64,000 nucleotides of DNA, taken from Mobula hypostoma. Its lineage: Eukaryota. A model generated the notes under the pieces. It was not told the DNA's origin. It saw only the letters and a program-made list of their open reading frames with translations, and searched no databases. The position numbers were made by a program, and so were the translations under genes. The stretch is taken from assembly GCF_963921235.1 (NCBI RefSeq), contig NC_086108.1, forward strand, positions 45,572,001-45,636,000, written 5' to 3'. Below, in pieces: positions 2,019-61,847 of the stretch; the first letter of the stretch is position 1, and each line of letters opens with the position of its first letter.

Positions 2019-5000
2019 TTTTTCCTGTGGTACAATTCCAAGGGTGCTGACAGACTTATTTTATCCATATACCTTTTTCCATTCATCACTGGATATTACC
2101 TGGAGACATTGTGGTTACACCACTGGGTGAATATTCAGAGACCTGGAAGTTTGATCCAAAGATATGAGTTACAATCCCCAAGCATGGCAGTTGAGGAATC
2201 CAAAGTTAAATGCATTTGGATTATGAAGTTCATTTCACTAATGACAACCAGGAAACAATAAAGATGTTGTAAGAATCTGTCCAATTGACGAATGCACTTT
2301 GAGAAAGGAGTATACCAATCTTAGCAGATCTTTTAGCTTGAAAACAGGCCAGTTAGCAGCAGAAAACCATGCATATTAATCCCACCTTTTAGCATTTGAC
2401 CATCGCCTTCTCTGCCTAAGCAATACTAATGCTCGTCTACATACTTCCTAAACGCTGTTAGCAATCGCTCCACCACTCTCTCAGGGACTGCATTTAGGTG
2501 CTAACACTCTCTAGGTGAAAAAGTTTCCCCTCAGCTCCTTTAGTCCCAGCCAGACCTCCATTTTTGCCTAGATGTGATTCTGTGCTGACCAATTTACTTT
2601 ACTTTTAACTGTTCACCTCAGTTCAAGGGCAAACTCCACAACTTGTGAATGAATACGCAAAAACAAAAGGCAGGTGTTTACTTTCTTTGTCTCTGGTGTT
2701 GAGACAGAGGCAATCTGTGGAATTGTTGCATCTATGCAGACTAAGATTGGTTAACTTAAACTGCTCAATTGATCAAGTTTGAGCTTGAGCCCTAATGAAG
2801 CATAAAGTTACTCGATGCAAATGAAATCTTGTTCTACTTTCAGAGAAGCGTGATAATCTACATGCACAAATGATCCAGCTGACTTAGCACTGTACTTTGC
2901 AGAAAGCTTATCATAAATACATATTAGAAATTGCAAACATGATTGATCTAGGACAGGGAGTGCTACATGTGTTGTTTTTCTTGGCTAGTGTGTGCATTCC
3001 CAATTGCAAGACAGCTGGTGGATGCAAAGGGCCAGAGTACTCTCATGCTATCCTACGCTGAGACCTAGGCAGAATAACCAGCATCCCTCTATTCTTCAGC
3101 TGTTTTTTTTCTTTCATGTTCTGTCCATTCAACATTCTTAATAAATAAAATCAGTTTTATGTGTCACATAGTTTTATAAAAAGACACCCTGGTCCAATAA
3201 CTTGTCCCTATAAAAAGGTGGAAGTGCATTCAGGGATGACATTTACAATCACATTACAGGCAAGCATGTCATTTTTCAGTTATGGACAACACTGCATTCA
3301 GTGCTTTGGGTTTAAACCAGTCTACTTTAATGCCGTCGAATGTATCCCAGTTGAAACCCTTCACAGGAAAGGCTATTTTTAGCTACTTTACAAGAGGATA
3401 ACTCACACGTTAGGTATAAAACCATGACAAGCAGCTGCTGCCTAAACCACTTCCCACTCTTGGTAATGCAGAAAATCTCATGGCTTAATTTAGCAAGAAA
3501 AAAGTAGAATGTTGTACATCATGAGAAAAGGCAATGAAATTACTTCAACGTAATTAAAATCTTTTACAAGAATATGTAACTTTGCCAAGCATAGCTTTGG
3601 CAATGTACAATTCTTTAGCCTACTTCTGATGACATTGGACAACAATTCTGCAAATATCACAGCTTTCAGTTATTTCACATAAGTGGCCATTCTTCATTTA
3701 GATCCCAACTAGGAGCAATTCACAGATTAGGCCATTGGATCATAACAGCTCACAGTTGAGCACTTTGATCTTACCCGACATTTATGTGTAAGTATATGTC
3801 CACATTCATACATGAACATGCAAAAAATTGTTCCTAACTGTTAACTCTTCTTAAAATATAATCATATATGACAAAGACACATTAATTTCAACTTCAGGAT
3901 ATGTTTGGACGAATTACTTCAAAGGTGCTCAGATTATAACTCTGATTTCACCTAAAATACTTAATACTTCAGCTAGTGTCTTTGCCCGTGAATTATCAGG
4001 CAAGGAGCATACTATCATATTAATCAGCTACTGATGAAATCTTCTGATTAAAATCTGCTCTCCTCAGCACCACTCTACATTTCTTTCTTCAAGCCCCTTC
4101 AGGAGCATATATTATCAGTGAACATATGGGCCAGAAGAAATGTTTAATTTGGCTGAATTCCCACTATTCATTTTATTTTTGAAACATTCTTTCTAAGTCA
4201 CCTGTGAGGTGCTTGTTATGAAAACATAATATGTTATCAGATGGGTTTAAGGTGTAGTGAAATTATGATAATCAAGGCATTGTAATCACATTTAAATCAA
4301 TATAAGAAATCTTATTTGTTACTCATGCCAACATCTAGTCCACTGCCTTTTTTATTACCTTTTTAAATACTTAAAATCAGAAGCTTTTACCTTAGAATTT
4401 GACTTATATCATTCACCAGCACAGTTCAATTCCAGTTCTGCTGCATACCAAATTCAAAGGACTTGACATTTGATTAAAAGTGTATTAAGTAACTATTTAA
4501 AGTTATGCAATAGAGATTCAATTATTTTAAATGCTTAAACTAATTTCAAGCTTCAGAAAACCTTAAGACATCCATTGTAATGTTAGATGTTATTCTATAA
4601 TTTCTCATTTCCTTGTGTTTTGTCCTCAGCGTTTCCTGTCCCACTCAGGCACCCCACACCAACATGATGAAGCTTAACAAACAAGAGAAAACCTGCAGAT
4701 GCTGGAAATTCAGGCAACACACATTTTCCAAAAAAAACTTTTCCAATATTTAATGCAGGGAAACTTTACGGCCACAAGACTTTAACAAAATGTCCCCAAT
4801 TATTGCAGGAAAGCGCTCAGGCTAGCGTGGAGCTTTTTTTTCGAACAGAATAGAACAGTGTACGAGGCAACATCTGCTTACCAACTCAGAAGATTAAATA
4901 AATTGTTATTATATTTAGATGATACCAACCTGAGGCACAGGAAGCATTAAAAGATTACAGGAAGAAGGAAATTGTGAGGCAGGTACGGGTGATTGTCTTG

Positions 5001-5565: not shown

Positions 5566-5567
5566 AG

Positions 5568-7664: not shown

Positions 7665-8360
7665 CTAGGGCAGCGAACAATCTGCTAGAGGTACTCAGCA
7701 GGTCAAGCAGTGCCAGTGGGAGGAAAGAAAATGCTAACATTTCAGGTTAAAACTTTACATCTGGACCGAGCGGGGAGAGGCAAGATAGCCACCATAGACA
7801 AGTGGCGGCAAGAAAGGATTCTGAGGCGATTGGTAGACTGAGGGGGTACTGGAGAAGGTTTGGAGCAGGAGCTGTTCCACGTAGGCAACAAAAAAGGCAT
7901 AGCTTGGGCCCATGCTAGTGCCGATGGCTGCTCTTCTGATTTGTAGGAAGTGAGAGGAATAAAACGGGAAGTTGTTTAAGGTAAGAAAAAGCTCAGCCAA
8001 GTGGTCGGGAATGTTTGTGGGGGGAACTAGTTGGGTCTGAGGGATTTTTGACCTCATTGATGGGGGGGATGGACATATATAAAGACTGGCATCCATTGTA
8101 AAGATGTGGCAGGGAATCAGAAGTTATCCAAATGATGGAGGGAATGCAAAGAATCCCAAATATAAATGGGAGGGGACTAGACAAGGGGAGATAGGGTGAA
8201 GTCAAGCTGTGAAGAGATAAAATAAGTAGGGCAAGAGCGGCCAGAAAGAGTGGGTCTATTAGAACAGTCTTGTTTATGGATCTTGGATAAGAGATTTAAG
8301 CAGGAAGTGAGCCCTTGAGGTACTATCAGGTTAGAGGCTGCAGAGAGGAAATCACTCATC
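7665..8360 (-). mobile_element. Penelope-like element, RT fragment and terminal repeat
   Basis: LAELFLTLNNFPFYSSHFLQIRRAAIGTSMGPSYA matches the Penelope RT motif. Confidence 0.8.
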
Positions 8361-8370
8361 TTAAGCTCTC

Positions 8371-9095: not shown

Positions 9096-10519
9096 ATTGG
9101 TAACACAAGGGATTCTGGTGATGCTGGAATTCCTGAGCAACACACATAAAATACTGGAGGAACTCAGCAAGTCAGGTAGTATCTAAGGAAATGAATAAAC
9201 ATTTGACATTTCAGGCCGTGGAGACCCTTCTTCAGGACTGAGCAGGAATGGGGAAGATGCCAGAATAAAAAGGCAGGAGGAGGAGCAGGAGGATAAGATA
9301 GTATGTTCTAGGTGGTCAGATAACAAATCCTTTGTTATAAGCTTAAGCATTTTCTCCAGTACTGATACTGGGCTAATAAGTCAATGGTTCCGTAATTTCT
9401 CTCTCGATCACTTCTTAAATAGTGGTTTCACATTTGCCACCCTCCAATCAGCAGGACCATGCAGAATATTGAAAACTGATAACTGGAGTATACACTGTCT
9501 CCATTGTCAGCTCTTTCAAAACATCAGGATTTAGGTAATTGCTCTAGGGACTTACCACATTTAAAGATTTATTTTTTCACTAATACTAATTATTTTATTT
9601 CTTTATGAACACAGGACACTTGGTGCAATTTTTCTGTGAAGTTTATATCACTTTTGATGAAGACAAACCCAAAATATTTATTTAGTTTTTCTGCCATTTT
9701 TTATTTCCCATTATAAATCCTCCTTTCTATGTCTGAGCTGTATTTAATCTGCCTTGATTGTTTCTTGCTAGCTGACTCTCAGTTTCTGTTTTCTTTTTAA
9801 CAACTCCTTGGCCATCCTAAAATGATCCCAATCTTCAGGCTTGCTTCTTTTCCAGGCAAGCTTATATGCTCTATCATTGCCATAATGTTGTAGAGATATA
9901 CACCATGGCAAGAGGCCATTCAGTCCATTGGGTCTGCACTGATTCTTAATTACCATTCACACCAATTTGGATGAACCCCATTTATATCAAGGTTTGCTTC
10001 TTCCGTAATCCAGGGTTGAACTTTGCTCTGTTGCCTGCACGCTTTCATAATTATTGAGAGTTGATCTCTCAATAATAAAATCACATGAGTAGTGGGATAT
10101 TGGTCTGGGAGAGGATTGAGAAGGTGATTGAGTTAATGTAAGGGTATTTTCAATAAAATAATAACACTAAGAAAAACCACCCAGACTCATAAAGCTCTTG
10201 AAGAGCTTGTGGGGCTTGACATAGGGAAAATATTCACCCTGACAGAGTAGTCTGAGACCAGTTTGAGAATAAAGGGCTGTTTATGAAAATGTGTAAGTAT
10301 TAACCAAGATGTCTTGGAGTGCCTGGAAGTAATCCAAATAAAATCAGGCCCCGTTGACAGTAAAGAATGCTGAAACAAATTCCAAATCTCCATTTATGTC
10401 TTCCTTAGCATGCAAAGCTATCAACATCCAAAATCTCAAAAGTATGTACGTATGTAGAGTATGTGTAGATCTAGTGACACAGGGCAGGACAGGCCCTTCT
10501 GTCCCAGTAAGCTCTGCTG

Positions 10520-14890: not shown

Positions 14891-16743
14891 ACTGTTCGGA
14901 CGTATTCAGACTGTTTCAGCTACTTAGAGCAGTTAATGAATCAAAACCTTAGAGTCACATGCACAAGCATATCATAGGCATTTCTGTCCTTGACTTCTGC
15001 TGGAGCAAAACTGCCTCCAACGTTGAAAACACTCATAAGAAATTCAGACATAATCTGGAATAATTTTCTCGCTAACCGTCAGAAAAACAACATGCGCCAC
15101 TTGAGTTTCTAAGATGCACCGCCAGCAACTACTGCCCTTTGGGAGACCTGAATCAGAAGGTGCCACACTGCTGTGTACCTCACTCAGAGTGTTTTAATGA
15201 GAAACTGATTAAGCTATTAAATACAGTATATTTATCTGTTTTTATTCAAAGGCAGTGCATTTTTGACTTATCCTAGTGGAAGTGATTTCAAATTGCTGAT
15301 ATTAAACCTTGTAATAACTACTTCTGAAATTAATTTATCAAATGTAGTTTCCAGGAGTTTCCTGCCAACATGTCAATGAGCTGTGAATTCTAAGTACCAA
15401 CCTATGTAATGACATTATGCCTTTCATTACCTCAGAATACCCAAAGAGCTTTGTGAACCATTAAGCAATTTTTGGCATGTAATCACTGTTGCAACATGAG
15501 AGATGTGGCAACCAATGTGTATGCTTCAAAGTCCCATTAATAGTCCCAAGATAATAACCAGAATATCTAGATTAACATTGTTGATTGAGGGTTAAGTATT
15601 CGCCAGTTTTCTAGAAAGTTCAACTCTGATATTTAAAAATAATGAAAGTGGACATTGGTCCTGCCAAAAGGTTTCGGCTGGAAACGTCGACTGTACTTTT
15701 TTCCCCAGATGCTGCCTGGCCTGCTGGGTTCCTCCAGTATTTTGTGTGTGTTGCTCGGATTTCCAGCATCTGCAGATCCTCTCTTGTCAGTGGACATTGG
15801 TATTGGTCTTGGTTTTTATTACTGTCACATATACCAAGATACAGAGAAAAGCTTGTCCTACAAACAGCTTACACAGAATCCGCAGTCACAGCTCAGTACA
15901 TCCCAGAAATCAGCCATCCTCCACAGACTGTCTACACTTCTCATTGCCTTGGTAAAGCTGCTAGCATAATCAAAAACCCACTCTTCCCTGGACATTCTCT
16001 CTTTTCCCCTCTCCCATTGGGTTGGACAAACTGAAGCCTGAAAGCATGAACTACAAGGCTTAAGGGTGGCTTCAGTCCTGCTGTATAAGAATATTCAATG
16101 GTCCCCTTGTACAATAAGATGGATTCTTGATCTCATAATCTACCTCGTCCTGACCTTACATCTTATTGTCTACCTGCACAACACTTTATGTAATGGTCAC
16201 ACTTTATTCTGCATTCTGTTTTCTGTTATTGTTTTACCTTGTACTATCACTGTTGTAATGAAATGATCCGGTATCCGAGACAAGTTTTCTCTGTACCTTG
16301 ATACATCAACAAAATGACCAGTTTACCGTTAAAATCACTGGGGGATTGCCCTGGTCCAATGGAGAGAGATGAAGGGCATGCCAGGGTCAGTACAGTAGTA
16401 AAACTGAAAGTTCACATGCAGTATCATTTATGTGCTAAAAGTGAGAAAAACATGCACTATACAGAGTTAAGCCATCCCACAGCCAACAGAGTTAAGTATA
16501 GGTATCCTCAGTAATGACAAGACAAGGCTGAAAGGAATGTAACCACATAGAGCTAGAAATGCAGAGCTATGGGTGCAGAGGGGACAATCTATCTTTGCTT
16601 TATATTGAGATTCCACTAGTATAGTAGCCAGTTCTCAGCCAATTCGATGCACATGATGGGATATTTAAAAAAAACTGCAGGGAGTAATTCACTTAATAAA
16701 GGCTATGAAGCTGGCCAACATCACAGCTATAGTATTGAGAATC

Positions 16744-16848: not shown

Positions 16849-17879
16849 ATTCAAATACCATCATTCCAGCAAATATTCAACAATGTGGAAAAATACCTTG
16901 GTATATCCTGTCTGTGAAAACCAGAATAAATCCAACATGTCTGTAAAACTACCAATTTCTCCATAATTAGTAAAGCAGTGGAAAATGTCATAATCAGTGC
17001 GATCAAATGGCACTTAACCACTGATAAGCTATTCACTGTCACCCATTTTGGGTTTCACCAAAGCCACTTAGTTTCCTCAAAGGCTCAGTGTCAACATGGA
17101 CTCAAAGGCTGAATTCCAAAGGTGAGATGAGAGTGATTACCCTTGACATCAAGACGATAGTTAACCAAGAATAGCAGCAAGGGGCCCTGGAGATCTGAAA
17201 TCACTGGGCAGGAAGTGGAAAATACTGTAATGTTATTTGCCAAAGCTATTCTGACAGCAGCTCCCAAGTCTGCAACCTGTCCGAGTAAGGAGAAGATCAA
17301 CAGGCAAATGGAAACATCACATCCTGTAAGATCCGTGGTATGCCACAAGCCATTCTGATCCTGTTGTTTCAGGAGCTCCTTATCCAAGTTCACCAGAAAG
17401 AATGAAGTGGTTTGAAAAGGTGATTCACTACTGGGGCAGTTAGGACTGGGCAACACATAATGGCCTTGTCAGTCCTGCTCTGTACTTTGTGTCTGCCCTC
17501 TTTGCCCTCTGTACTGTTAAGCATTTATTTTGACCAGAGAAAGTAAGTCATCCTTGAAACAAGTATAAGTGCCTCATTTCTCTATCCTTAGCCAAATTGC
17601 CAACTGAATCACAACTGAGTATCAACATCTTTTACGCTTCTCTATTCCCCTTGCAACAAGCTAGTTATTACCAAGAAGGAGGAAGCCAATGTAGGTCATA
17701 GGAATTGCTAAAAGACTTTGTGGAACAGGATGCAGGCAACATAATTTTGAATGAGTTTGCGATGGGCAGGGTGGCAAATGGATTAGTACTTTGAATCACC
17801 CATACCATCTATATCTCTCTGCAGGTAGATATTTTGAGGTTCTATGCTTGAAAAGTAAAAAGATTTCCTTTTGCCAGAG

Positions 17880-19720
17880 AACATGCTGTCTGGGTAGGCC
17901 CATTGTCTCTGCCTGTTCCTGCCCCGCTGAACGTGTCCTCATGACTCGACTCCATTCTATCCCCCTTGGTTCAGTCCCTTCCCACCGACACCTGTGACAT
18001 TTCTCATGATCTTGATATCCCCACTAACCTTCATTTCCTGGGCCCTGACTGCCTCATTTTTGCTATGGATGTCCAGTTCCTATGCACTTCTATCCTCCAT
18101 CAAGGAGACCTTAAAGAACTCTGCTTCTTTCTCAATAAAAGAACCAATCGGTTCCTCTCCACCACTTCCCTCCTCTGTCTGGCAGAGCTGGTCCTCAGAT
18201 TCAACAATTTTTCCTTCAGCTCCTACCACTTCCTCCAGACTCAAGGGGTAGCCATGGACAACACGCTTGGGCCCCAGCTATGCCTGCCTTTTCATTGGCT
18301 ATGTAGAACAGTCCATGTTGCAATCCTTCTCTGGTAATGCACCCCAACTCCTTCTCTGCTACATTGATGACTACATTGGTGCTGCTTCATGCTCATCAAT
18401 TTCATCAACTTTGCCTCCACCTTCCTCCCTGCCCTTAAATTCACATCCATTTCTGACACCTCCTTCCCATTTCTCGATCTCTCTGTCTCCATCTCTGGAG
18501 ACAAATGTCAACCGACATCTTTTATAAACCTACCAGTTTCCACAGTCACCTGACTACATCTGGACCCACTCTATCTCCTGTAAGAATTCTATTCCCTTCT
18601 CTCAGTTCCCTCGTCTCTGATGCTTCTGTTCCCAGGATGTGGCTTTCCTTTGCAGAACATCAGAGATGTCCACCTTCCTGTAAAAGTAGGGTTTCCCTTC
18701 CTTCATTACTAATGCTGCCCTCACCCGCACCTCCTCCCTTCTCTGAACCTTTGCGCTCACCCCATCTTTGTGTCACCTTGACAGTGATAGAGTTCCTCCA
18801 CAACTTCTGCCATCTTCAAAGGTATCCTACCAGCAAACCTATCTTTACCAGCCCTTCCCACCATTGCTTTCAGCAGGAATTTCTCCCTTTGTGATTTCCT
18901 TGTCCATTCATCTCTCCCCATTAATCGCCCACCTGGCATGTATCCCTGCAAACAGCTGAAGAGCTATCTCTTCCCATTTACCTCCCCCTCACCTCCATTC
19001 AGGGACTTAAACAGTCCTTCCAGGTGTGGCAACATTTCACCTGTGAATCTGCTGGGGTTGTTTTATGGTTCCGATGCTCCTGATATTGCCTCCTCTACAT
19101 TGGTGATACTCGCCGTAAATTGGGCGACTGCCCTGTCAAGAACCTGTGCTCCATCTGCCAAAAGCGATATTTCCCAGTGGCCAAACATTTTAATTCCGAT
19201 TCCCACCCATTCCCATCCCAACATGTTGGTCCATGTCCTCCCCTTGTGCTACAATGAAGCTACCCTCAGAATGGAGGAGCAACACGTTATATTTTGTTTG
19301 TGTGGCATGAATATCAATTTCTCCTACTGGTTAAAATAAATTTACTTCCCCCTCCCCTCTTCTTCCATTCCCCACTCTGGCTGCTTACCTCTTCTCACCT
19401 GTCTATCACTTCCCGCTGGGTCCTTTTCTCCTTCCCTTTCTCCTATGGTCCACTTTCCTCTCCTATCAGATTCCTTCTTTTCCAGCCCTTTACTTTTTCT
19501 ACTCACCTGACTTCACCCATCATCTTCTAGCTATCCCCCTTCCCCTCCTCCACATTTTATTCTGACATCTTCCCCTTCCTTTCCAGTCCTGAAGAAGGGA
19601 CTTGGCACAAAACGTTGACTGTTTATTCATTTCCATATATGCCGCCTGGCATGCTGAGTCCCTGCAACATTTTGATGTGCATGGCTTTGGATTTCCAGCA
19701 CCTACAGATTTTCTCCTGTT
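17880..19720 (+). mobile_element. Penelope-like element (RT, GIY-YIG relic, terminal repeat)
   Basis: FAMDVQFLCTSI, QTQGVAM..GPSYACLFIGYVEQ, YIDDY, TDIFYKPT; frameshifted. Confidence 0.9.
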
Positions 19721-21454
19721 TATTAAAGGGTTATGCCTGATTACTTTTTTCCAACATCAAGGGAGAATTCTAATTGCACAGTTTCATTTTGGCACAATTG
19801 GCACTTTTATCTCTTTCAAGTACATCACATTCGTCCATTTTTCTCATTTTTCTTTAAAGATGACTTCTGTGTGTTTCCTATTTCCCCATTAATTTAAAAG
19901 AAATAAATGCATTTAGATCACTGTACTTCATTCCAATGAATTGAAACCAATGTTGTAATCTAAAAGATAATTTCCTTTGATTCATTTCCACTTCTCCTTT
20001 TATTTATTCTCACCTACAAATCTTGCAAGTACTGATAGTAATTAACATTTGACATCAAACATGAAAAACTATTATTTTGACAATGATTGTGAAACCAAGT
20101 CAATGCAGAATAATCATTAAGCTTCAAGAATCAAGATTGTTTAATGTCGTCATTTCTGGTACACAAGTGTAAAGCAGAACGAAATAATTGTTACTCTGGA
20201 TCTGATACTGCACAAAAAAGACACAATAAGATAAAGAACACAATAATTGCATAAGATAGTTTATATACGAAGATTGATTGCCTGTCTATAAGCTGAAGCT
20301 AGGCGCTAGAGTATCTGCACTTAAGCTGGCTGACAGGAAATTATAAAGTAGTGATAGTGCGAGGTGTGGAGGGGCACCAGCTTTAGGCATGATTTTTTAA
20401 ACCTTATTCATTGCTTGCTCATTTTGACAACTGGTTTACATTCAGTGCACAAACTACTTCTAAATCAAATAGCAAAATTTTCACCCTGCATTAAGATTAT
20501 ACACTTACTGAGTCTTAGTGCCTGCACAGGTAAGTGATGATGCTGATTTTGGAGAGATGCAGCCAAGAAAGTAAACTAGCTGGCGTGTGTTATTGACTAT
20601 TTATCTAAGGAGTACCAAGATCACTTTTGAATTCAGAAACTTGAAAGATTGCTTCATAGAAATAATTAAAACATAATTGATAATCAATCTTCATTTTAGT
20701 ATTGCACTTGTATCCAATTTCAAATGTTGATTGAAGTCTGATAATTTATATTATTGTCTGTGTTTGACCTTCCTAATTTGCTGGTTGGATATGTATGAGA
20801 AGTCAGGGCATGACAAGTTAATGTAAGCCAGGACAGGCTGACACTGAAAACGACATCTTGAATCATCCAAACAATTGAAATCTGAGCTAAGTGTCCTGCA
20901 GGTATTCTCAGTTGGAACTGTTGTCACAGCTGAAGCTGACTGACATAGTTTTGATCATCCAGGTTGCCAATAAATCACTAAACCTTCATAAACAAGGGCA
21001 TCAATTCATTATGTGGGACAGTTTTCGATTGCTCGCTCCGAACCTCCGGAATCCTGGATAAATGAAGCACATATTTGTTCATATCTGCTGATTTTCATCT
21101 TTATTATCTCTTTGAGAAATCTACATTGAATGCAAACAAGTGTGCTGCCAATTTTAAAACTGATGACCTGTGACTGACTTTTAATTTTTTTAATGAATCA
21201 TTGATAATCTTCTTCATGATGTGACCACTGCTGTGGTGATGCATATTAGCAGTTATAGACGCAGTGCAGCGTTACCACATGATGAACTTTATTATGCAAT
21301 GTGCCTTAACAAACTGTAAATCTTAGAAGAGCATCCGTTATATTTTGGCACTTTTGATTTTCAGGTTAAGTGTCCAAATTAAGATAATTATGTTATTTTG
21401 CAGAAGGCATTCAGTTGTGATCGCTCACTCATTCGTTCTCTCTTTTTCTAAGAC

Positions 21455-21960: not shown

Positions 21961-21984
21961 CGATATGGTATGTTCCAAATCAGA

Positions 21985-22021
21985 GGTCCTGATGAAGAGC
22001 CTCAGCCTGAAATGTTGACTG
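21985..22021 (+). ncRNA. Minimal hammerhead ribozyme motif, degenerate
   Basis: GGTC-CTGATGA-AGAGCCTCAGCCT-GAAA-TG-TT-GACTG. Confidence 0.5.
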
Positions 22022-22914
22022 TTCATTTTCCTCTATGCTCCTGCTGAGTTCCTTTAGCACCTTGTGTGTGTTGATCCAGACCTTTGAATTCCCTTTTTTC
22101 AGTCAAACATTGGTAGCTTGACAGTTTAAAGATGATAGTGAATTAATTCTGCCTTCACTGACGGGACGGGAAGTTGTACAGCAGGAAGATTCATTGTCTT
22201 TCAGAGAGTGGTGAATAATGTTAATGTCATCAGACAAGTGGCAGATTCCCAAGTCAATTAAACTGAAATTGCTGCAAAACATTACAAATCTGGTTCAAAA
22301 TACAGCTTTGTTTAAAATTATTTATCAGCAGAATTATTTATTTTATTCCATACAATTGGCTTACAGGTAACAACAATTAATGTTGTTGTCTGTAGATTCA
22401 ATCTGTTTCTGCATGTGGTTCTGATCTTAATATGTGATATAGACTTCACCAGAAGTAAGAATGCATAAGTATTATACTTTTTTATTATTTATTGGACACT
22501 AAAATGATCTATCATTCTCAGTATGCAGATATTGTGATTACTGAACAAAGAAATCAGATGAATGTTATCGTTTTGCCGACGCCATGTGGTCGAGAACACT
22601 ATAAACTATCTCTTCCTTGTATCTCCCACTTACAAGGACAGATAAAGTACTGAGACAGGTATCTAATCTTGTTCTTACATCCTATAGGGGCAGCAAAAGT
22701 GTTACCAAAGATAGGAAGGTGTTGCTACAGCAACGTATTTTTCTTTATCTATTTGAGTTAAGACGTGTTCTTTACCTCCAGCATTCTGACAAAGGCCAGT
22801 TTATATTTTGATTTTTCAATTATAAGACAAATTGGATGCTGGTACAATATTCTGAATTTATAAATACAAAGTAATTTGTAGCACAGCATTTCGTGTACCA
22901 TCAAGTAATGGAGA

Positions 22915-27770: not shown

Positions 27771-28957
27771 TCTAGGCCTAAGTCAGTTTGTTTTTGGTGG
27801 ACCACAGAAGTTTTGCTCTTGGATCTGTTGCTGGGAATTTAAGTAGAGCATGCAATACAAGGCGTTATGAACAACTGAAGAAATCTGTGTATTTTGAGCC
27901 TTATAATAGGCCTTATGTGTTATGTAGCTACAAAGGAAGTTTGGGTTCATGGCAGAGAAAGCATGGGATGCTTGAGGGAGAGGGTGCTAGTTGGGGAATG
28001 AGAAGATAGTGATTAGTGTTCTTTGACGTGCAAAAGAATCAGAATGATAGCTCACCGCCTCTCTGATAATTTTAACATTTAAAAGACGTTTAGGAAAAGT
28101 TTATAGAGATATGTTTCAATGCTGTATAACTGTGATTCTAATAATTTTCATAAAAGCATTAAGAAATGGAAAAGTGGCTGAGAAATTTTGAACTTTCTCC
28201 ATTACTTAGTAAAATAATAAATAATCTGATTTTGGCTTCAATTCCATTTTCATGTCTGGTCGCATAATCTTTCTCTCAGTTCTAAAATTCTGTCATTCTA
28301 ATTCTTGAGTACACTTAATCACTAAACTTTCATTGCTCTCCATGGTAGAGAAATACAGAAAAATCACAACAATTTGAGAGAAGAAATTCTTCTCACCACT
28401 GTCTTAAATGGCCAGCCCCTTATCCTGAACTAAGGCTTGTAGTTGTCTCACCAGAAGACATATCCTCTCGGTATGTTCATTATCAAACTTCCACGAGTTG
28501 TTACTTATTTAATTCAGATTACCTCTCATTCTCTTGAACATCTGAAAGTATGGGACCAACTTGTTTTTTTCTTTCCTCATAAAATAATCATTCAGACCTG
28601 GAAACAACATCGCTTTTCTGCATCTAAAGCATGTAGATATTTCCTTGAAGTATTATGATTTGGAGCAAGTGTCTTATACACCAAAATGCATTATAAAGAA
28701 GAAGATTGCTTGGACATTTAATTCTAGGAGATGGTCACACCCCTTAGATTAAGTACCGCAAAGGCCACTGTTCAGGGACAAGAGACTGTGGTTCTTTGTG
28801 ACAAATGGGGATCCAGTAGAAGGGAAGCTTCAACTTTTCAGCTTTTGGAGTTGCTCAGTAGAGCTGTTCTTGCAAGCTGTGAGAGTGAGAGGAAGAACTG
28901 TGCATTCATGCTGTCGGAGTAAAAAGGAACAGCAGGGGAAGGTAAACACGGATCGTA

Positions 28958-30042
28958 AACATGAGAAAGTCTGTAGATGCTGGAAATCCAAAGCAACACA
29001 CTCAAAATGCTGGAGGAACTCAACAGATAAGGCAGCATCTATGGAAACGGATGGGAAGTTGAAGTTTTGGGCCAAGACCCTTCTTCAGGACTGAGCAGGA
29101 AGGGGAAAGGTGTCAGAATAAAAAGGTGGGGTGAGGGGATGGAGGCTAGCTGGAAGGTGATCGGTGAAGCCAGGTGGGTGGGAAAGGTCAAGGGTTGGAG
29201 AAGAAGGAATCAGATGTCAGGGGAGAGTGGACCATGGGTGTAAGGGAAGGAGGAGGGGATCTTAGGGGAAGTAATAGGCAGGTGAGTAGGGGTAAAATTT
29301 CAGGGTGGGGAATAGAGGTGGGGGGGGGCAATTTGTTTACTGGAAGGAGAAACTGATTTTCATGCCATCAGATTGGAGGTTGCCCAAACAGAATACAAGG
29401 TGTTGCTCCTCCACCCTGAGGCTGTCCTCATCTTGGCACAAGGGAAGGCCTAGACAGACACATTGGAAGGGGAATGGGAATGGGAATGAAAATGTTTGGC
29501 CACCGGGAAGTACCCCTTGTGGCAGATGGTGTGGAGGGGCTTGACCAAGTGGTCCCCCAACTTACCACAGGTCTCACTAATGTAGGTGAGGCCGCATCGG
29601 GAGTACCCGACACAATAGATGATCCCAGCAGATTCGCAGGTGCAGTGTTGCCTCACCTGGGAGGACTGCCTGGGGCCCCGAATAGAGGAGAGGGAGGAGG
29701 TAAATGGACAGGGGCAGCACTTTGACTGCTTGCAGGGATAAATGCCAGGAGGGAAATTAGCAGGGAGGGATGATGGAGAAGGGAATCACGGAAAGAGCAC
29801 TTCCTGTGGAAAGCAGAGAGGAGCTGAGGTAAAGATATGTTTGGCGGTAGGATCCCTTTGGGGATGGCGGAGGTTGTGGAGTATAATGTGTTGGATGTGG
29901 AGGCTGATGGGGTGGTAGGGAAGGACACGAGGAACTCTATGACTGTTTAGGTGACGGGAAGATGTGGTGAGAGTGGATGTCTGGGAAATGAAGGCGATGT
30001 GGGTGAGAGGAGCATCAATAGTGAGGGAGGGAAGCCCCGTTC
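28958..30042 (-). mobile_element. Penelope-like element, 3' part (GIY-YIG)
   Basis: RQHCTCESAGIIYCVGYSRCGLTYISETCGKLGDHLVKPL..PVAKHF. Confidence 0.85.
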
Positions 30043-31729
30043 TTTCCTTGCAGCTGCAGACCTGAATCAGAATGCTGTGTTGTCTTCTCAGTGCCAGAGT
30101 TCAGCCTCTAGGGGAAAGATCCTTTCCATTACATCTGCCTGGATATTCTGGCGCTGGCTCACGTCAGGTTTTTAGCTCTCTCGTAAGCTATGGCAATACT
30201 GGAAGTGGTTTGCACTGGTGGCTTGATGCCAGGAGTGGCAGACATAGAGGTACCAAAGAGCCATTAATCATGGTCCAAATCCGTACCAATATTTTATCAA
30301 GGACTGATGGGGGTGTATGAGCTGCTTGGATGTAACGTATGCATAACTACAAAGAGAATATTCCTGTATTATGACTGTGCTTCATGCGAATTGGCAGAAG
30401 ATCAATAAAGTCAGACAGTTGAATAAGTGGTTTAAAATCTGGTGTAGGAGAAATTGGTTTTAATTAATTGGCTATTGGTACCGGTACTGCAGGAAGAGAA
30501 TGCTGTTCCCTTGAACTAGCTCATCAAATAATATGGGATATAGATCAGGCTTTAAACTAAATAATGGGGACTGCATTGAGGGGAGGTGAGATTTAGGAAA
30601 TTAAGAAGAAAGAAAGTGTGAGAATGATATAGCTTTGGATAACCAGAAGGTGGCAGGAAGGGAGATAATATACATACAATAAGTATACACTTAAGAATTT
30701 GGGAAAACTGATTAAAAATGCAATTAAGAACTTTTAACTGAAAGCATGTAATAAGTTAGCTCAACTGATGGCACGAGTAGAATGAAATGGGTATGATAGC
30801 ATTTGAGGTGCAGTTGGACAACTGCTCAAGTCTTGCAAAATGAACATCCTGAAGCACTTGGCATTTCAGAAAAATAAAACAGAAAGGAAAGAGATAGGGT
30901 AGCTCAGTTAATAATCACATCAGTAATGAAACTAATGAGAATAATGTCACTAAAAGGAGAAATTCTGCAGATGCTGGAAATCCAAGCAACACACACAAAA
31001 TACTGGAGGAACTCAACAGGCCTGGCAACATCTATGGAAAAAAGTAAACAGTCGATGTTTTGGGCTGAGGCCCTTCATCAGCGTTTTGTGTGTTGCTCGC
31101 AATAGTGTCGCTGAGGGTACTCTGGATGGTTTCTTCATACTGCACATTCTGGAATTACCCTGGGAATAGGTTATCTTTGAACTGGTCATGTGTAATGAGA
31201 CAAGATTAATTACTAATATTAGTACTTAAGTATCCCTAAGGACAGGACATGATAAAATTAAACAAAGGTATGAAAAGACTGTGAATTAAAGTAGACTGAA
31301 AAAATTACAGGGCTTGGTAATAGTTACATAGTTACAGAGATGTTAGGAGATACTGGTAATTATCATAAGACATCACTTGAGGAACTAAAAACTCCAGGAG
31401 AAGCATAATCCATCAATGGTTAACCATGGAAGCTAAGAATAACATCAAATTAATTGAAAGAAAATCTATGGAATGTTGCAAAGATTAGTTCTGGCTGAGA
31501 TGATTAAGAAAACAAAAGCAATTAATAAAACGAATGAAGCATCCAGTTAGAAATGTCTCTGTATTACATCGATTGTCCATCTTGTAATATCACCATCTGT
31601 ATTCCTCAATCTGCTGCTGTAGTTATTAGCAATGCTTTTTTTATCTTCAGGCACGATTGTGCCAGTGATCTTCTGCTCAGTCTTATCTTTTTTTGTGAAC
31701 TTGTCATTCAAAACCTGTCTCTTAATAGA

Positions 31730-38814: not shown

Positions 38815-39845
38815 AAAGTCCAAAGCAACACACACAAAGTGCTGGACGATCTCAGCAGGTCAGGCGGCATCTAAGGAGATGAATAAACAATCGACTTTTC
38901 GGGCCAAGGCTCTTCTTCAGGACTGAAAAGGAAAGGGAAATAGGCCAGAATAAAAAGGTGGGGGGATGGGAAGGAGGCTAACTAGCAAAGTCATGGGTGA
39001 AGCCAAGTGGGTGGGAAGGTAAAGGGCTGGAGAAGAAGGAATCTGATCGGAGAGGAGAGTGGACCATCAGAGAAAGAGAAGGAGGAGGGGACCCAGGGGG
39101 AAGTGATAGGCAGCTGAGATGAAGTAAAACATCAGAGTGGAGAAAAGCAAAAGTGGGGAGAGGGACGGGGAGGGAAGGAGAAATCGCTGTTCATGCCATC
39201 AGGTTAGAGGCAACCCAGATGGAATACGAAGTGTTACTCCTCCACCCTGAGGGTAGTCTCACCTTGGCACAAGACGAGGCCATGGGCAGACATGTCGGAA
39301 CAGGAATGGGAATGGGAATGAAAATGTTTGGCCTCCGAGAAGTACCCCTTTTGGCGGATGACGCGGAATTGCTTGACGAAGTGGTCCCCCAATTTACGAA
39401 GGGTCTCACCAATGCAGAGGAGGCCTCATAGGGAGCACCGGACACATTGAGTGACCCCAGCAGGTTCACAGGTGAGGTGTTACCTCACCTGGAAGGGGTG
39501 TTTGTGGCTCTGAATGGAGGTGGGGGAGGAGGTGTATGGGCAGGTGTAGCACAATTGCAGGGTAAGTGCTGGGAGGGAGATTAGTGGGGGAGGGACGAAT
39601 GGACAAGGGAGTCGTGGAGGGAACAATCCCTAAAGAAAGCAGAGGGTGGGGGAGGTAAAGGGATGTTTAGTGGTAGGATCCCTTTGGAGATGGTGAATGT
39701 TGTGGAGGATGATGTGTTGGATGTGGAGACATGGGGTTGTAGATAAGAACAAGAGGAACTCTATCTCTTTAGATGGGGTGAAAGATGTTCGAGAAATGGA
39801 AGAGATGCAGGAGAGGGCAGCGAGAATGATGTGGAAGGGTGAGTT
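38815..39845 (-). mobile_element. Penelope-like element, 3' part
   Basis: Colinear with the 28958-30042 copy and carries the same terminal repeat. Confidence 0.85.
38888..38925 (-). ncRNA. Minimal hammerhead ribozyme motif, degenerate
   Basis: CAGTC-CTGAAGA-AGAGCCTTGGCCC-GAAA-AG-TC-GATTG. Confidence 0.55.
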
Positions 39846-40250: not shown

Positions 40251-40251
40251 T

Positions 40252-43339: not shown

Positions 43340-46300
43340 ATGTTCCCCTCTCACCTTAACGCAATGCCCGCTGGTTCTTTATTCCCTGACACTGGAAATG
43401 GACTGAGTGCATTCACCTTATCTATGCCCTTCGTAATTGTATACACTTCTATAAGATCACATCTCGATATCCTAAACTCTAAGCAATAAAGTCCTGGCCT
43501 CTCTAACTTCTCCCTATAATTCAATCTCCCAAGTCCTGGCAGCATCACTGTAAACCTTTTCCGCACTTTTTCCAATTTGATAATATTTTTCCTACTGCCA
43601 TTTTTCTATAGCAAAACTGAGCATAATACACCAATGCAGCCTCCCCAGCATCCTGTACAGCCACACCATAACCTCCAAGCTTTTATAGTCAATGTCCTGA
43701 CATAATGTGCCACAGGCTTTCTTCATCATTCTTGTGACTTGTGACTCCACTTCTATGGAACCAGGTAGTTGTACTTGCAGTCCAAGGACCTTCTGTGCTA
43801 CGATGTTCTCCAGGGCTATGTGTTCATTGTGAGAGTCCTCCAGGGCCCTGTGTTCATTGTGGGAGTCCTCCAGGGTCCTGTGTTCATTGTGAGAGTCCTC
43901 CAGGGCCCTGTGTTCATTATGAGAGTCCTCCAGGGCCCTGTGTTCATTGTGAGTGTCCTCCAGGGCCCTGTGTTCATTGTGAGAGTCCTCCAGGGCCCTG
44001 TGCTCATTGTGAGAGTCCTCCAGGGCGTGTGTGTTCATTGTGAGAGTCCTCCAGGGCCCTGTGTTCATTGTGAGAGTCCTCCAGGGCGTGTGTGTTCATT
44101 GTGAGAGTCCTCCAGGGCCCTGTGTTCATTGTGAGAGTCCTCCAGGGCATGTGTGTTCATTGTGAGAGTCCTCCAGGGCCCTGTGTTCATTGTGAGAGTC
44201 CTACAGGGCCCTGTGTTCATTGTGAGAGTCCTCCAGGACCCTGTGTTCATTGTGAGAGTCCTCTAGGGCCCTGTGTTCATTGTGAGAGTCCTCCAGGGCC
44301 CTGTGTTCATTGTGAGAGTCCTCCAGGGCCCTGTGTTCATTGTGAGAGTCCTCCAGGGCCCTGTGTTCATTGTGAGAGTCCTCCAGGGCCCTGTGTTCAT
44401 TGTGAGAGTCCTCCAGGGCCCTGTGTTCATTGTGAGAGTCCTCAAGGGCCCTGTGTTCATTGTGAGAGTCCTCCAGGGCCCTGTGTTCATTGTGAGAGTC
44501 CTCAAGGGCCCTGTATTCATTGTGAGAGTCCTCCAGGGCCCTGTATTCATTGTGAGAGTCCTCCAGGGCCCTGTATTCATTGTGAGAGTCCTCAAGGGCC
44601 CTGTATTCATTGTGAGAGTCCTCAAGGGCCCTGTGTTCATTGTGGGAGTCCTCCAGGGCCCTGTGTTCATTGTGAGAGTCCTCCAGGGCCCTGTGTTCAT
44701 TATGAGAGTCCTCCAGGGCCCTGTGTTCATTGTGAGAGTCCTCCAGGGCCCTGTGTTCATTGTGAGAGTCCTCCAGGGCGTGTGTGTTCATTGTGAGAGT
44801 CCTCCAGGGCCCTGTGTTCATTGTGAGAGTCCTCCAGGGCGTGTGTGTTCATTGTGAGAGTCCTCCAGGGCCCTGTGTTCATTGTGAGAGTCCTCCAGGG
44901 CCCTGTGTTCATTGTGAGAGTCCTCCAGGACCCTGCATTCATTGTGAGAGTCCTCCAGGGCCCTGTGTTCATTGTGAGAGTCCTCCAGGGCCCTGTGTTC
45001 ATTATGAGAGTCCTCCAGGGCCCTGTGTTCATTGTGAGAGTCCTCCAGGGCTATGTGTTCATTGTGAGAGTCCTCCAGGGCCCTGTGTTCATTGTGAGAG
45101 TCCTCCAGGACCCTGTGTTCATTGTGAGAGTCCTCCAGGGCCCTGTGTTCATTGTGAGAGTCCTCCAGGGCCCTGTGTTCATTGTGAGAGTCCTCCAGGG
45201 CCCTGTGTTCATTGTGAGAGTCCTCCAGGGCCCTGTGTTCATTGTGAGAGTCCTCCAGGGCTATGTGTTCATTGTGAGAGTCCTCCAGGGCCCTGTGTTC
45301 ATTGTGAGAGTCCTCCAGGGCCCTGTGTTCATTGTGAGAGTCCTCCAGGGCCCTGTGTTCATTGTGAGAGTCCTACCTGATTTCATTTTACAAGATGCAC
45401 CACTTATCCGAATTAAACTCCAATTACCATTACTCATCTAAGATCCCCCTGTAATTTTTAATAACCTTCTTCATTATCCACTATACCACCTATTTTGGTA
45501 TCATCTGCAGACTTACTAATCATGCCTTTAACATTCTTATCCGAATCATTGATATAGACGATAAACAACAATGGACGCAGCACTGACCCTTAACCTTAAG
45601 GCATAGTGCTATCTTGGGCTTTCAGTCTGAGAAACCACTTTCTACTATCACCATTTGATTTCTACCATCAAGCCAATGGGTATCCAGTTAGCCAGCACTC
45701 CCAGGAATCCATGTGATCTAACCTTTCAGAGCTGCCTAGCATGTAGAACTTTACCAAAAGCCTTACTGATATTAAATAAACCACATCCACCACTCTGCCC
45801 TGATCAAATTTCTTGTTCGCCTGATCAAAAAACTCAATCAAGATTGTAAGACATGACACCACATGCACAAAGCTATGTCGACACTCCTAGTCAACCCCTG
45901 ACTTGTCTATCTTCCCCTTAGTCAAAACAGCGAAGAAGTATTCTTTAAAGACCTTGCCCATCTCCTGCAGCTCCTCTCCAAAGTGTGCCCTTTGGCCTTG
46001 AGGGGCTCTATATTCTCTCTAGTTACTCTTTTTTCCTTTACAAACATATAATCACTTTCAATTATCCTTAATCTTCTCTGCAAATGTTACCTCAGGTCCC
46101 TTTTTTGTCGTCCTGATTTCACTCTTATACTCCTCCAGGGGTTTATCCCAGCAGGCTGTACATGACACATGCCTCCCTTTTCCTGGCCAGGACCTCAATA
46201 TGCCTCACCATCCAGCCTTGCCCTTCACTCTAACAGGAACACGCAGACCCTGATCTCTCATGATCTGACTTTTAAAAGCTTCTTACTAGCCCGTCATCCC

Positions 46301-57310: not shown

Positions 57311-57431
57311 TTCATTTACATTTTTGTACGCTCGCGTATACAAAGCCGCACTCACACAGCCACATCGAAATTTCATTAAAAATTACACTGGTGTAAACAA
57401 GTTTAGTTTTACTATTGACAAGTACAACGCT

Positions 57432-57930
57432 TCAAAGTTCAAAAGTAAATTTATTATCAAAGTACATATATGTCACTATATACAACCGGAGATTCATTTT
57501 CCTGTGGGCATACTCAATAAATCCACAAAAGAATGATAACCATAACAGAATCAATTAAAGACCACATGAACTCAGGTATTCAACCACTGTGCAAAAGACA
57601 ACAAGCTATGCAGATACAAAAAGAAAGAAAGAACAATAATAAATAAATAAGCAGTAAATATTGAGAACATGAGATGAAGATCCTTGAAAGTGAATCTGAT
57701 TTCAGTGAAGGGGCAAGTGAAGTTTTCCCCTTTGATTCGAACCTGAGGGGTAATAACTGTTCCTGAACCTGGTGGTGTGAGCCCTGAGGCTCCTGTACCT
57801 TCTTCCCGACGGCAGCAGTGAGAGGAGAGCATGACCTGGGTGGTGGGGGACCCTAATGATGGATGTTGCTTTCTTGCAACGATGCTTTGTGTAGATGTGC
57901 TCAATGGTGGGGAGGGCTTTACCCGTGATG
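57432..57930 (-). mobile_element. Rex1/Babar-like 3' fragment
   Basis: Same 3' UTR as the 11.9 kb and 24.5 kb copies. Confidence 0.8.
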
Positions 57931-57954
57931 GGTAGTTATTACGGTGATAACAGG

Positions 57955-59190
57955 ATATTTAAAAAATTATAAGTCAAACAAAGTCAACATGGTTTTCTGA
58001 AAGGGAAATCATGTTTGACATGTTTGTTAGAGTTCTCTGAGAATGTAACAAAGAGTATAGATAGGGGAGGACCAATCTATGCAGCCTGTATTAAATTTCT
58101 AGAAGTCATTCACTGTAGCATCCCGTTGAAGTTACTATACAGATTAAGAGCTGGGGGCTTGATTCACTGACAGAAAACAGAGCAATAGGATAACTGGATG
58201 ATTTTAATACTGGCAAGCAGTAACTGGTGAGGGGTCATGTGATTAATGCTGGGTCTCATCTACTTACATTCTGCATTGATAACTTGGATGAAGGCAATCC
58301 TGGGATGAAGGATATCTGCAGCTAAAGATAGACAGATTGTGGTGTGCACTCACAAAGTTTGTCAAGGAAAACAGAAAAGTGAGCGGTTAAGGAGTTGTCT
58401 GATGCAGCGTACCGTGGGCAAATAGGAGGTTATCCACTTCGGATGGGAGAATGAAAAAGCAAATCATGATTTAAATGGAATGTGACTGCAAAATGTTGCC
58501 AGTATAAAACTCCTGGAGCACCAAGCACAAAGTGTTAGCATGATGGCGCAACAAGAAATCAGGAAGTCAAATGGAATGTTGGCCATTGTAAGAAGTATGG
58601 AGTAGGAAGTAGGGAGATTGTGATAATTGTTTTCAATGCACTGATGAGACCATGCCTGGAGCACTGATGTAAGATTGCTTTCTATGTTTAAGGATGAATA
58701 GACTTGCATTGGAGGCTATACAGACAAGATTAATGGGTTGATCCCTGAAATTAATGAATTGACATATTCAATATTGAATATTGAGAAATATTGAGCAAGT
58801 TTGGCCAATACATGTTGGAATAGAAGAGAATGAGAGATGATCTCATGAAACATGTAAGATTCTGAGTGGGATTAGTATTGTGAATGCTGAGGCGATGCTT
58901 CCTCTAGTAAAAAAAATATAGCACAGTCTCGGAATAAAGGATTGTCCGTTTAAAACTGAGATGAGTCATTTCTCTTGGGGTCCCAAATCTTTACAACTTC
59001 CTGCCTTGGAGAGCTGTGAAGGCAGAGGCATTGAACAGCAGAGATTGACAACCAACTGAAGGGCAAGGAAGTTAAAGCGAGTGGATGGAAAGTGGGCAAG
59101 TCACGCTGAGGTCAGGCTTGGATTAGTTATGATTTTACTGAATAGTGCATCAGGCTAGGGAGCTGATTGGCCTATTCCTGTTCTGGAATC
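57955..59190 (+). mobile_element. Old, heavily decayed CR1 RT
   Basis: SQHGFLKGKSCLTCLLEFSENVT motif near 57975-58030. Confidence 0.75.
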
Positions 59191-61059
59191 TTAGACTGTG
59201 CCAGGCTAGACTCTACATAGTACCCTCAAATCTGTACATTTATTTTTTCACATTTTTTGTATTTCTTTTGTTGAGTTTTGGTAGATTTGTATGTTTCACG
59301 TTTTGACAGGTGTTAAAACTTTTTTTTGTTCTGGGATTTTGTGGTTTCCACTTGTTCAGGTCTGTTTACCTGAACACGTTATAAGGCACGAGGTGCTACA
59401 ACCATGAACCAATCCTGGCTTTCTTGTCCTAAAGTCCTGCTTTCCAGACATGAATCAGGTGAGTGCTTGATCTCAGAGACAGAGGGTTTTGGGCTGTGGT
59501 ACTGTAGCTTAAAAATGCTAATTGCCCTTGTTACTTATCAGCAGTTGCTGCAGCAACTCAGATGAAAATAGGTGCATAGTTTAATGAGGAAATTCAAAGT
59601 TGTTGTCTGAGAAGTTTTGTCAAAAACAGTGTCTTGCTGTCTGGTTCACCATTGATAGGGACTGAATTTGTGAAGTTGGAGTATTTGTGTTGTAGCTATT
59701 AAACAAAATCATCACAAAAAATTACATCTTATACATTTCATCTTAAGTATCCTTTTGGTGAAGATAATTATTCATTCCTTCCAGCTAACTCTCCAATAGT
59801 TAAATTAACTATCATTGCACAAGTAAAATATGGACACATTTCAAATTTCAATGACATTCCAATGTGTTTTTACAGTAATGAGGTTTTTAAAGTGTAGTCA
59901 CTATTGCAAAGAGGAATAAAGTCAGCTAAAAATATGACAGCAGATGTGCATGGAGATAGAGCACAGAAATAGGCCCTTCAGCCCACCAAGTCCATGCTGG
60001 CCATCACTTACAGTAATCTCATATTCTGTTCTCCTCAACTGCTCCCACTTTCTACCATTTAGCCAGCATTATTGTGGCTACCTAACCTACCAACCTGCGC
60101 ATTATGGGTTGTAGGAGAAAACTGGAGCACCCTAAGAAAATCAATGTAGTCACAGTGTGAATATGCAAACTCCATGCACACGGTACACGAGGTCAGGATT
60201 AAACACAGGTTTAATCCCAAAATGTTTCTTTTCCTGGGGGGAAGGGGGTGGGCGCAGGAAGGTATATTATATATCTGGTTCCACTGACAAACTGAGTGCA
60301 GAATAGCCATACACCAAATGTGTGCTTTAATTCAACGGCGGTCAGGAGTAGAAGTGAATTCACCAGGTTACTTAGTGACAACATTGTCTACTCCGTTTCT
60401 GTAACTATATGCAGCCTGCCAGAAATGCAGCAGCCAATTTGCATCCAGTAACCTCCTGCAAACAACCACAGGACAATGATCAGATTATTCTTTTTCACCT
60501 CAGTGGAAATGCAGATCATAGAGAAACAACTACTCTTCTTTAAAATAGTGCCTTAGGGTACTCTACAGCTGAGAGAGCAGATGTCATAGCTGATGATAAT
60601 GCAATTCTCTCTCACTACTGCATATATGTAGATATAATCCTGATTTTAGACTCAGTTCTCCAGAGTGAATCTTGACTACAGACTTCCAATTAAGAAGCAA
60701 AAGCGATACCTTGGGGGCCAAACCAAAACCATTATAAAAGTGTCCATAGTTCAGATATTGATTATTCCAAAAACACCAAATTTAAAGAATAACCATTTTT
60801 CATTCACAAATATGAGAGAATCTGCAGATGCTGGAAATTCCTCTAGCATTTCTGTTGAGTTCCTCAGTATTTTGAGTGTGTTGCTTTCAACTACTCTTCA
60901 TTTGTCAATTTCTCTGGAATCTCTGTCTGATATTGAATATTTGCATATCTTTCTCACTCTGCTCTGATAAGTTTACTCATTGCAAAAGACCCAAGCAATG
61001 AATCCAATAGTGGAGAGTCTCATCACTTCTCCTCATCATTCCATGCTGCCAGCATCATC

Positions 61060-61830
61060 AACACAAAATACTCTGCAGATGCTGGGGTCAAAGCAACACT
61101 CACAACACGCTGGAGGAACTCGGCAGGTCGGGCAGCATCCGTGGAAATGATGAGTCGTCGTTTCAGGCCGGAACCCTTCGTCAGGACTGAAGAGGGAAGG
61201 GACAGAGGCCCTATAAAGAAGGTGGGAGGAGGGTGGGAAGGAGAAGGCTGGTAGGTTCCAGGTGAAAAACCAGTAAGGGGAAAGATAAAGGGGTGGGGGA
61301 GGGGAGGCAGGGAGGTGATAGGCAGGAAAGGTGAAGAAGGAATAGGGAAAACACAATGGATAGTAGAAGGAGGTGGAACCATGATGGAGGTGATAGGCAG
61401 CTGGGGGAGGGGGCAGAGTGAAATAGGGATGGGGAAGGGAGGGGGAGGGAATTACTGGAAGTTGGAGAATTCTATGTTCATACCAAGGGGCTGGAGACTG
61501 CCTAGATGGTATATGAGGTGTTGCTCCTCCAACCTGAGTTCAGCCTCATCATGACAGTAGAGGAGGCCATGTATGGACATATCTGAATGGGAATGGGAAG
61601 CAGAGTTGAAGTGGGTGGCTACCAGGAGATCCTGTCTATCGGGGCGGACAGAGTGGAGGTGCTCAACAAAGCAGCCCCCAATCTGCGTCGGGTTTCCCCG
61701 ATGTACAGGAGGCCGCACCAGGAGCACCGAATGCAATCTGTTGGGTCTGTTGTCCTGTTGTCCACAGAATGAGTCTGTTGGGGTCATCTATTGCATTCGG
61801 TGCTCCCTCCTCCACATTGGGGTCACCTGA
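61060..61830 (-). mobile_element. Penelope-like element 3' end with an inverted piece at the truncation
   Basis: FVEHLHSVRPDRQDLLVATHFNS..LEEQHLIYHLGSLQPLGMNIEFSNF. Confidence 0.88.
61152..61189 (-). ncRNA. Minimal type I hammerhead ribozyme motif, best-preserved copy (cleavage-site U mutated)
   Basis: Minus strand: CAGTC-CTGACGA-AGGGTTCCGGCCT-GAAA-CG-AC-GACTC, i.e. stem I, CUGANGA, stem II, GAAA, minimal stem III, stem I'. Confidence 0.65.
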
Positions 61831-61847
61831 CGCAGGGTGGGGGGCGG

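Follow-up and report, generated by a model that had tools for sequence, protein, structure and literature searches.

At 61152..61189 of the window – the whole 64,000-nucleotide stretch of Mobula hypostoma DNA analysed here – lies a short motif laid out like a hammerhead ribozyme, with eight relatives elsewhere in the same stretch. Three questions follow: whether these motifs are what they seem to be, what kind of element carried them, and whether in their present state they are capable of anything, alone or together.

The motif family and the copy at 61152

An earlier note, made from the letters alone, had listed nine motifs and read them as one dispersed family. All nine are found at the claimed positions and strands, to within a few bases, and all nine sites are copies of a single Penelope-like 3' pseudo-LTR (Table 1). 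Self-BLAST joins the copies over 90-210 nt (best E 8e-34) and four of them over 600-990 nt. An nhmmer profile built from eight copies recovers its own eight with E at most 2.4e-33, as it should by construction, and also the copy at 7733, which was left out of the model (E 5.1e-11), together with three tail-only pieces that lack the motif. The majority 38-mer, which derives from the same copies to which it was matched, finds seven sites with 5-10 mismatches; the best of 100 dinucleotide shuffles has 14. The copies are all single, at least 1.4 kb apart and never inside a tandem array; nine in 64 kb amounts to about one copy per 7 kb of window.

Core positions are numbered here by the hammerhead convention, and the cleavage site is read by the N-U-H rule. 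The motif has a minimal type I layout with the core C3-A9, G12-A15.1, U16.1 and H17, which is spelled out by the majority letters of the nine copies and of the aligned contigs, although no single copy has a complete motif. The minimum-energy fold of the majority motif consists of stems I and II (-10.5 kcal/mol); 79% of the cells in these stems are paired, compared with 12-44% for slid controls, and 15.1-16.1 is palindromic. The type I layout proposed in the note is borne out by its match to the metazoan Penelope consensus in Fig. S3 of PMC4209133, a match that includes the extra base after A9 and the palindromic 15.2/16.2 pair. The note had named an absence of stem covariation across genomic copies as a result that would refute it, and inside the window this is the outcome: in eight copies none of the pairs has changed on both sides, and shuffled sequences score equally well. 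The count is underpowered with so few copies, however, and relics of one family are not expected to covary.

Every copy carries lesions, as the note had also held. A strict minimal-hammerhead descriptor has no match in the window (shuffles gave one match in 9 of 100), and no intact, descriptor-passing copy was therefore found in the 64 kb. All 11 invariant core letters are kept in three copies (9200, 21985 and 38888), whose lesions are confined to the stems or the palindrome. An Rfam search of the window at E up to 10 returned 13 matches and no hammerhead; a scan for the motif pattern found nothing in viral contigs and nine matches in metagenome contigs, all due to chance and none with a profile match. 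We conclude that all nine are genuine examples of the known Penelope minimal hammerhead, each of them damaged, and that the window copies are most likely inert.

The copy at 61152 had been described as altered in its core at the cleavage-site U only. The part of this claim that holds is that U16.1 is the sole change among the 11 invariant letters; in addition, its pair at 10.1-11.1 is G.U and the outer pair of stem I is missing. Contigs of four public runs were aligned to the window at 80% likeness. At 16.1, U makes up 99, 97, 97 and 89% of contig depth, which marks the change as private to this copy. C11.1, by comparison, accounts for 50, 19, 23 and 33% of depth in the four runs, and several of the published minimal hammerheads described in PMC4209133 close stem II with G.U; the G.U at 10.1-11.1 is thus a family variant and not clearly a lesion. 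A very deep subfamily seemingly has G.U rather than G-C at this pair (61165, 61171-61172; in runs X11 and X15 it makes up 77-81% of depth). Few positions of the 61152 copy differ from the bulk of the aligned contigs, which argues that it is fairly young. Summed contig depth over its motif is about 1e5 times that of the unique flank, a ratio that is not a copy number; the family is very abundant in the genome, with copies possibly numbering 1e5 or more.

Table 1. Features of the 61152 insertion and of the other family members in the window (positions are those of the window).
Feature	Position	Strand	Evidence and remarks
Minimal type I hammerhead motif, 61152 copy	61152..61189	-	Layout in the five rows below
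Stem I	61189-61185 / 61156-61152	-	4/5 pairs (ungapped reading), outer pair lost
C3-A9	61184-61178	-	Followed by the extra A
Stem II	61176-61173 / 61168-61165	-	G.U at 10.1-11.1
GAAA	61164-61161	-	
U16.1 changed to A	61158	-	Predicted cut between 61157 and 61156
Downstream pseudo-LTR and tail of the 61152 insertion	61060..61151	-	Profile; contig depth ends near 61060
Pyrimidine-rich 3' untranslated part, upstream of the 61152 motif	61190..61463	-	Aligned with three other long copies
Broken GIY-YIG endonuclease relic	61464..61735	-	tblastn E 2.6e-15 to full RT+EN protein
Probable inverted piece of endonuclease start, 5' end of the 61152 insertion	61770..61845	+	Weak, E 1.4 only; GA/TCTA microsatellite follows
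5'-truncated element: linker, EN relic, 3' UTR, motif, shorter 3' end	38816..39845	-	Self-BLAST, tblastn; motif 38888-38925 (-): no change in the core letters, stem II with an A.C mismatch, C15.2>A disrupting the palindrome
Short insertion: motif preceded by an inverted tail piece of 19 nt, junction at C3	30952..31100	-	Motif 31081-31049 (-): G12>A, G16.2>A; 12-bp target duplication, 31112-31101 and 30951-30940, 10/12 identical
5'-truncated element, C-x4-C-x2-C linker and EN relic	28956..30045	-	Motif 29056-29093 (-): G12>A, G16.2>U, G1.1>A
Short copy starting within stem I	21984..22100	+	Profile search; motif 21984-22021 (+): all core letters kept; stem II with A.C; C15.2>U, C17>U
Longest relic: RT, linker, EN, 3' UTR, motif, tail	17875..19722	+	Protein relatives; motif 19584-19621 (+): G12>A, stem II broken, C17>U
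129-bp insertion starting at motif position 2.1 (15657 copy)	15660..15788	+	Substrate half of the motif intact, lesions A6>C and G8>A; 13-bp target duplication without mismatch, 15647-15659 and 15789-15801
Short copy that includes about 55 nt of pseudo-LTR upstream of the motif	9101..9296	-	Profile search; motif 9200-9240 (-): all core letters kept, loop II longer by 3 bases; C15.2>U, G1.1>A
Old element with an internal deletion that brings an RT relic next to about 35-60 nt of pseudo-LTR	7677..8368	-	Motif 7733-7770 (-): heavily decayed
Tail-only piece without motif	4674..4723	-	
Two tail-only pieces without motif	60804..60887	.	Opposite orientations

The element and its surroundings

The coding relics identify the element. 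The note had placed the motif on their sense strand, at the 3' end, wherever a relic is attached, and this is so for five of the nine copies (7733, 19584, 29056, 38888 and 61152), each with RT or EN relics upstream on the same strand. The RT fragment at 17945-18334 has 718 relatives by HMMER, the named ones being whale shark proteins; in 7 of the 10 relatives scanned (the nearest full-length proteins) RVT_1 and GIY-YIG occur together. The same order, RT then GIY-YIG, is matched at 17875-19206, and EN relics were found at three further copies. The window's own RT and EN fragments are too decayed for direct Pfam matches, of which there were none, and a word-based protein search with the EN fragment scored none of 505 candidates.

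A C-x4-C-x2-C linker is present in the relic at 29056 and in all ten long relatives checked. According to the sections of PMC8557442 used here, a CX2-5CxxC linker between RT and EN marks Neptune or Nematis, and the Penelope-like groups given for vertebrates in bioRxiv 10.64898/2026.07.22.740005 are Neptune and Poseidon. The element thus probably belongs to the Neptune clade, the linker motif being the one basis for this call.

Other traits agree with such an element: the copies are 5'-truncated, end in longer and shorter 3' forms, and are flanked by target duplications at 2 of the 11 insertions examined; an inverted tail piece lies at 31082-31100. Target duplications and inverted pieces are described as typical of Penelope-like elements (PMC8557442). 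The short copies start at 15660, 21986 and 31081, and two of them have G for A at position 2.4. A full element with two pseudo-LTRs, or a partial tandem, was sought within the window and none was found. Identity with a non-LTR retrozyme was ruled out, there being no tandem units and no motif in a tandem array; likewise ruled out was an origin of the 7733 deletion by splicing to the AG of stem I, since pseudo-LTR is kept upstream of that point. Judged by sequence, the source is an endonuclease-positive Penelope-like retroelement with the motif in its 3' pseudo-LTR.

The surrounding DNA has a GC content of 0.41 and a CpG observed/expected ratio of 0.29. It holds an intact DMRT2-like gene of three exons on the minus strand (55732-55343, 54181-54092 and 51495-50608). 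Over a match of 456 aa it shares 93% identity with a stingray protein that is uncharacterised, and it is separate from the dmrt2a matches; it is possibly the dmrt2b paralogue. Together with the whale shark relatives of the RT fragment, the gene indicates a cartilaginous fish, probably a ray, as host. Pfam, run on 70 of 206 frames (at least 70 aa, a length at which short exons could be missed), found no host-gene domain except DM. A second family of retroelements is represented by LINE relics at 11882-14289 (-), 5566-6100, 23770-24565, 40132-40915 and 57420-57958, with endonuclease-RT matches and an ALKBH8_N-like Pfam match near the 3' end. Repeats include a minisatellite at 43808-45374, in which a 30-bp unit recurs 52 times with 94% matches and several reading frames stay open, arrays of a 29-bp unit at 38205-38409 and of a 35-bp unit at 16744-16849, and a unit of 40-60 bp in three local copies, 92-97% identical, at 1675-2014. 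A near-perfect hairpin with 20-bp arms at 5446-5519, with a related copy at 10238-10293 and weak, sub-threshold matches to microRNA families, is probably the end of a small DNA transposon.

Decay, cleavage and the rival readings

If the motif functioned in the source element, then its letters should have been kept there and lost after insertion, and the pattern of decay fits this. The loss is largely one of CpGs, as had been proposed: 27 of 80 CpG-prone cells differ, compared with 89 of 575 in the tail, and the CpG-prone catalytic positions G8 and G12 are changed in 4 of 16 cells. At core positions outside CpGs only 2 of 72 cells differ from the majority, where base-matched tail rates lead one to expect 9.3 (p about 0.005); with the oldest copy (7733) included there are 4 such differences against 11.8 expected. 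The test is a modest one, the consensus coming from the same copies and the copies having first been noticed by their core. Among the variants listed for the aligned contigs, the main alternative letters fall in loop II and at N7, 11.1 and H17; that invariant core positions do not appear in that listing is no proof that they are constant. The retention of the core outside CpGs, together with decay of its CpGs, fits selection in the source elements and not in the window copies, with a core conserved among source subfamilies that decays freely once inserted.

When an active element is transcribed in tandem, the two motifs on the transcript would swap stem I strands, and their ACGU palindromes would pair into a 4-bp helix III, with the cut falling after C17. 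Reverse transcription would start about 95-120 nt downstream of stem II. Because copying would thus begin downstream of the motif, on uncleaved RNA, nearly every truncated insertion longer than about 130 nt would carry it, and inserted copies would then decay without selection, mostly at CpGs. In the two copies bounded by target duplications, the distance from the start of stem II to the end of the insertion is 120 and 122 nt. Sequence on both sides of the cut site is present in all nine copies, and that site is the starting point of none of the 12 pieces, from which it follows that the templates were uncleaved at that point.

Published work bears on these steps. The sections of PMC4209133 used here describe a motif without a stable helix III, a helix that can arise when two copies on the same RNA pair; single motifs did not cleave, and dimers cleaved weakly in vitro. 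In Anolis the motif cleaved only in the presence of the element's protein, which is predicted to dimerise; insertion in vitro took place without cleavage, and within the ORF that begins at stem II the start of reverse transcription lay at 111-118 nt (PMC11167929). Eight of nine Xenopus dimer elements gave no cleavage product (bioRxiv 10.64898/2026.07.22.740005). For the majority motif of the window, the double hammerhead is predicted to be 1.7 kcal/mol less stable than two monomers. That the source element self-cleaved as a dimer is plausible. Taking these lines together, we hold it very probable that the window contains inert relics of a minimal hammerhead from an abundant endonuclease-positive Penelope-like element.

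A different possibility is that the letters are kept in active elements for some other job, as promoter or initiator, splice acceptor or protein-binding fold, with cleavage minor or absent and the motif marking the start of the template RNA. The edge of the motif does attract attention: its sequence is similar to a splice acceptor and to an initiator alike. Three of the nine copies (15657, 21985 and 31048) begin within about 3 nt of the stem I AG, although these short copies share no first-exon remnant upstream. Among the well-kept copies, the four that retain upstream sequence show a pyrimidine tract and a CAG that rank with the top 0.1-1.2% of 8679 AG sites; the entire 3' UTR, however, is pyrimidine-rich, so that the tract proves little. 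Contig depth drops at 61189/61190 in all four runs, a step that may equally stem from subfamily differences upstream. A transcript start or splice point at the motif edge would explain both the starts of the short copies and the depth step; a stall of reverse transcription, joining at microhomology or upstream subfamily differences may do so as well. Also in favour of another job, the intron of D. virilis Penelope ends at helix I (PMC4209133, PMC2377424), and in Anolis, where insertion in vitro did not require cleavage, no RNA ends mapped to the cut site (PMC11167929). Against this stands the conservation of the exact catalytic letters across animals, as set out in PMC4209133, which is best explained by catalysis. 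We think it unlikely that another job is the main reason for the letters, though such a job can coexist with the hammerhead reading.

The note had gone further and suggested that copies damaged in different parts complement each other as heterodimers, naming the pair at 61.2 and 38.9 kb. In a double hammerhead each site takes its enzyme half from one motif and the U-H with the 3' strand of stem I from the other, and, counted on paper, an intact enzyme half meets a U-H substrate half in 32 of the 81 ordered pairs; 4 of the 32 form all pairs of stems I, II and III. CpG loss can even turn ACGU into AUGU (9200) or ACAU (31048), which pair fully with each other, yet these partners, on the same strand, lie 22 kb apart. 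The named pair fares poorly: 61152 and 38888 form 2 of 4 helix III pairs at a predicted cost of +6.8 kcal/mol relative to the free monomers, and they lie 22 kb apart with the DMRT2-like gene between them. The corresponding costs are +8.1 kcal/mol for 61152 with 15657 and +9.3 kcal/mol for 9200 with 31048 (nearest-neighbour energies, which leave out tertiary contacts, Mg and protein). A variant of the idea has intact element RNA cut relic-bearing host RNAs in trans, perhaps through the element's protein; the dependence of the Anolis hammerhead on a protein predicted to dimerise (PMC11167929) and the roughly 1e5-fold contig depth over the motif, which is not a copy number, could be cited for it. 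Even intact dimers, however, are poor cleavers in vitro (PMC4209133), as the Xenopus elements again suggest (bioRxiv 10.64898/2026.07.22.740005), and in a family of such abundance there is nothing whose explanation calls for relics to be rescued. A literature search for complementation between relic hammerheads found nothing relevant. We find the named pair a poor one and regard complementation, whether between damaged copies or in trans, as unsupported and very improbable. Just as improbable is its most elaborate form, in which many host transcripts would carry a relic with its substrate half (U-H and the 3' strand of stem I) intact, and a dimer of the element's protein would join such relics to enzyme-intact motifs of other RNAs, so that trans-hammerheads, including those with complementary CpG-decayed palindromes, would cut host RNAs whenever the element is expressed; if true, a vertebrate would surprisingly possess, in its scattered relics, a latent system for RNA cleavage.

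Least credible of all is co-option of the 61152 copy as a regulatory element of the DMRT2-like gene, which lies 5.4 kb downstream on the same strand. Position and strand are what speak for it; the copy carries a private change at its cleavage site, lies outside the mapped coding exons of the gene, and is of a kind that occurs every 7 kb in the window.

Comparison with known systems

The reading of the motifs as inert Penelope relics places them among systems already known. The metazoan minimal hammerheads of Cervera and De la Pena (2014, PMC4209133), in the sections of that paper used here, have the same type I layout, with CUGANGA plus one extra base, a G-Y closing pair in stem II, GAAA, a palindromic 15.2/16.2 pair, and U-rich 5' and AU-rich 3' flanks; like those in the window they lie 3' of the RT/EN ORF, mostly in single, 5'-truncated copies. 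Stem II and the cleavage site are nearly identical in the Acropora Neptune entry of Fig. S3. The lists in Fig. S3 and Table S1 differ from the present case in naming no cartilaginous fish, and nine motifs in 64 kb imply a number far above the 4,000-9,000 motifs reported for coelacanth and Xenopus (PMC4209133), although those figures refer to motifs that pass a descriptor. A search of the literature for Penelope hammerheads in sharks or rays found nothing relevant, although the supplementary tables of the 2026 preprint may list the family.

Animal non-LTR retrozymes (PMC7229834; bioRxiv 10.64898/2026.07.22.740005) also have type I hammerheads, related to those of Penelope pseudo-LTRs, and the preprint, in the part used here, reports a requirement for dimers in vertebrates and the presence of retrozymes in one chondrichthyan genome. 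Retrozymes are tandem arrays, whereas the window copies are single. Poseidon of Anolis carolinensis (Frangieh et al. 2024, PMC11167929) resembles the ray element in having a hammerhead in its pseudo-LTR, an end about 110-120 nt downstream of stem II, an optional tail and, in the sections of that study used here, uncleaved RNA as template. It differs in clade, the element of the window having a Zn-finger-like linker and being known from its sequence only.

So large a family is good material for testing what Penelope hammerheads do, since it offers thousands of insertion ends, subfamily substitutions and RNA ends to count. The kind itself was described in 2014 and the copies in the ray are a further instance, which adds a ray genome, with a very high density of copies, to those known to carry the motif.
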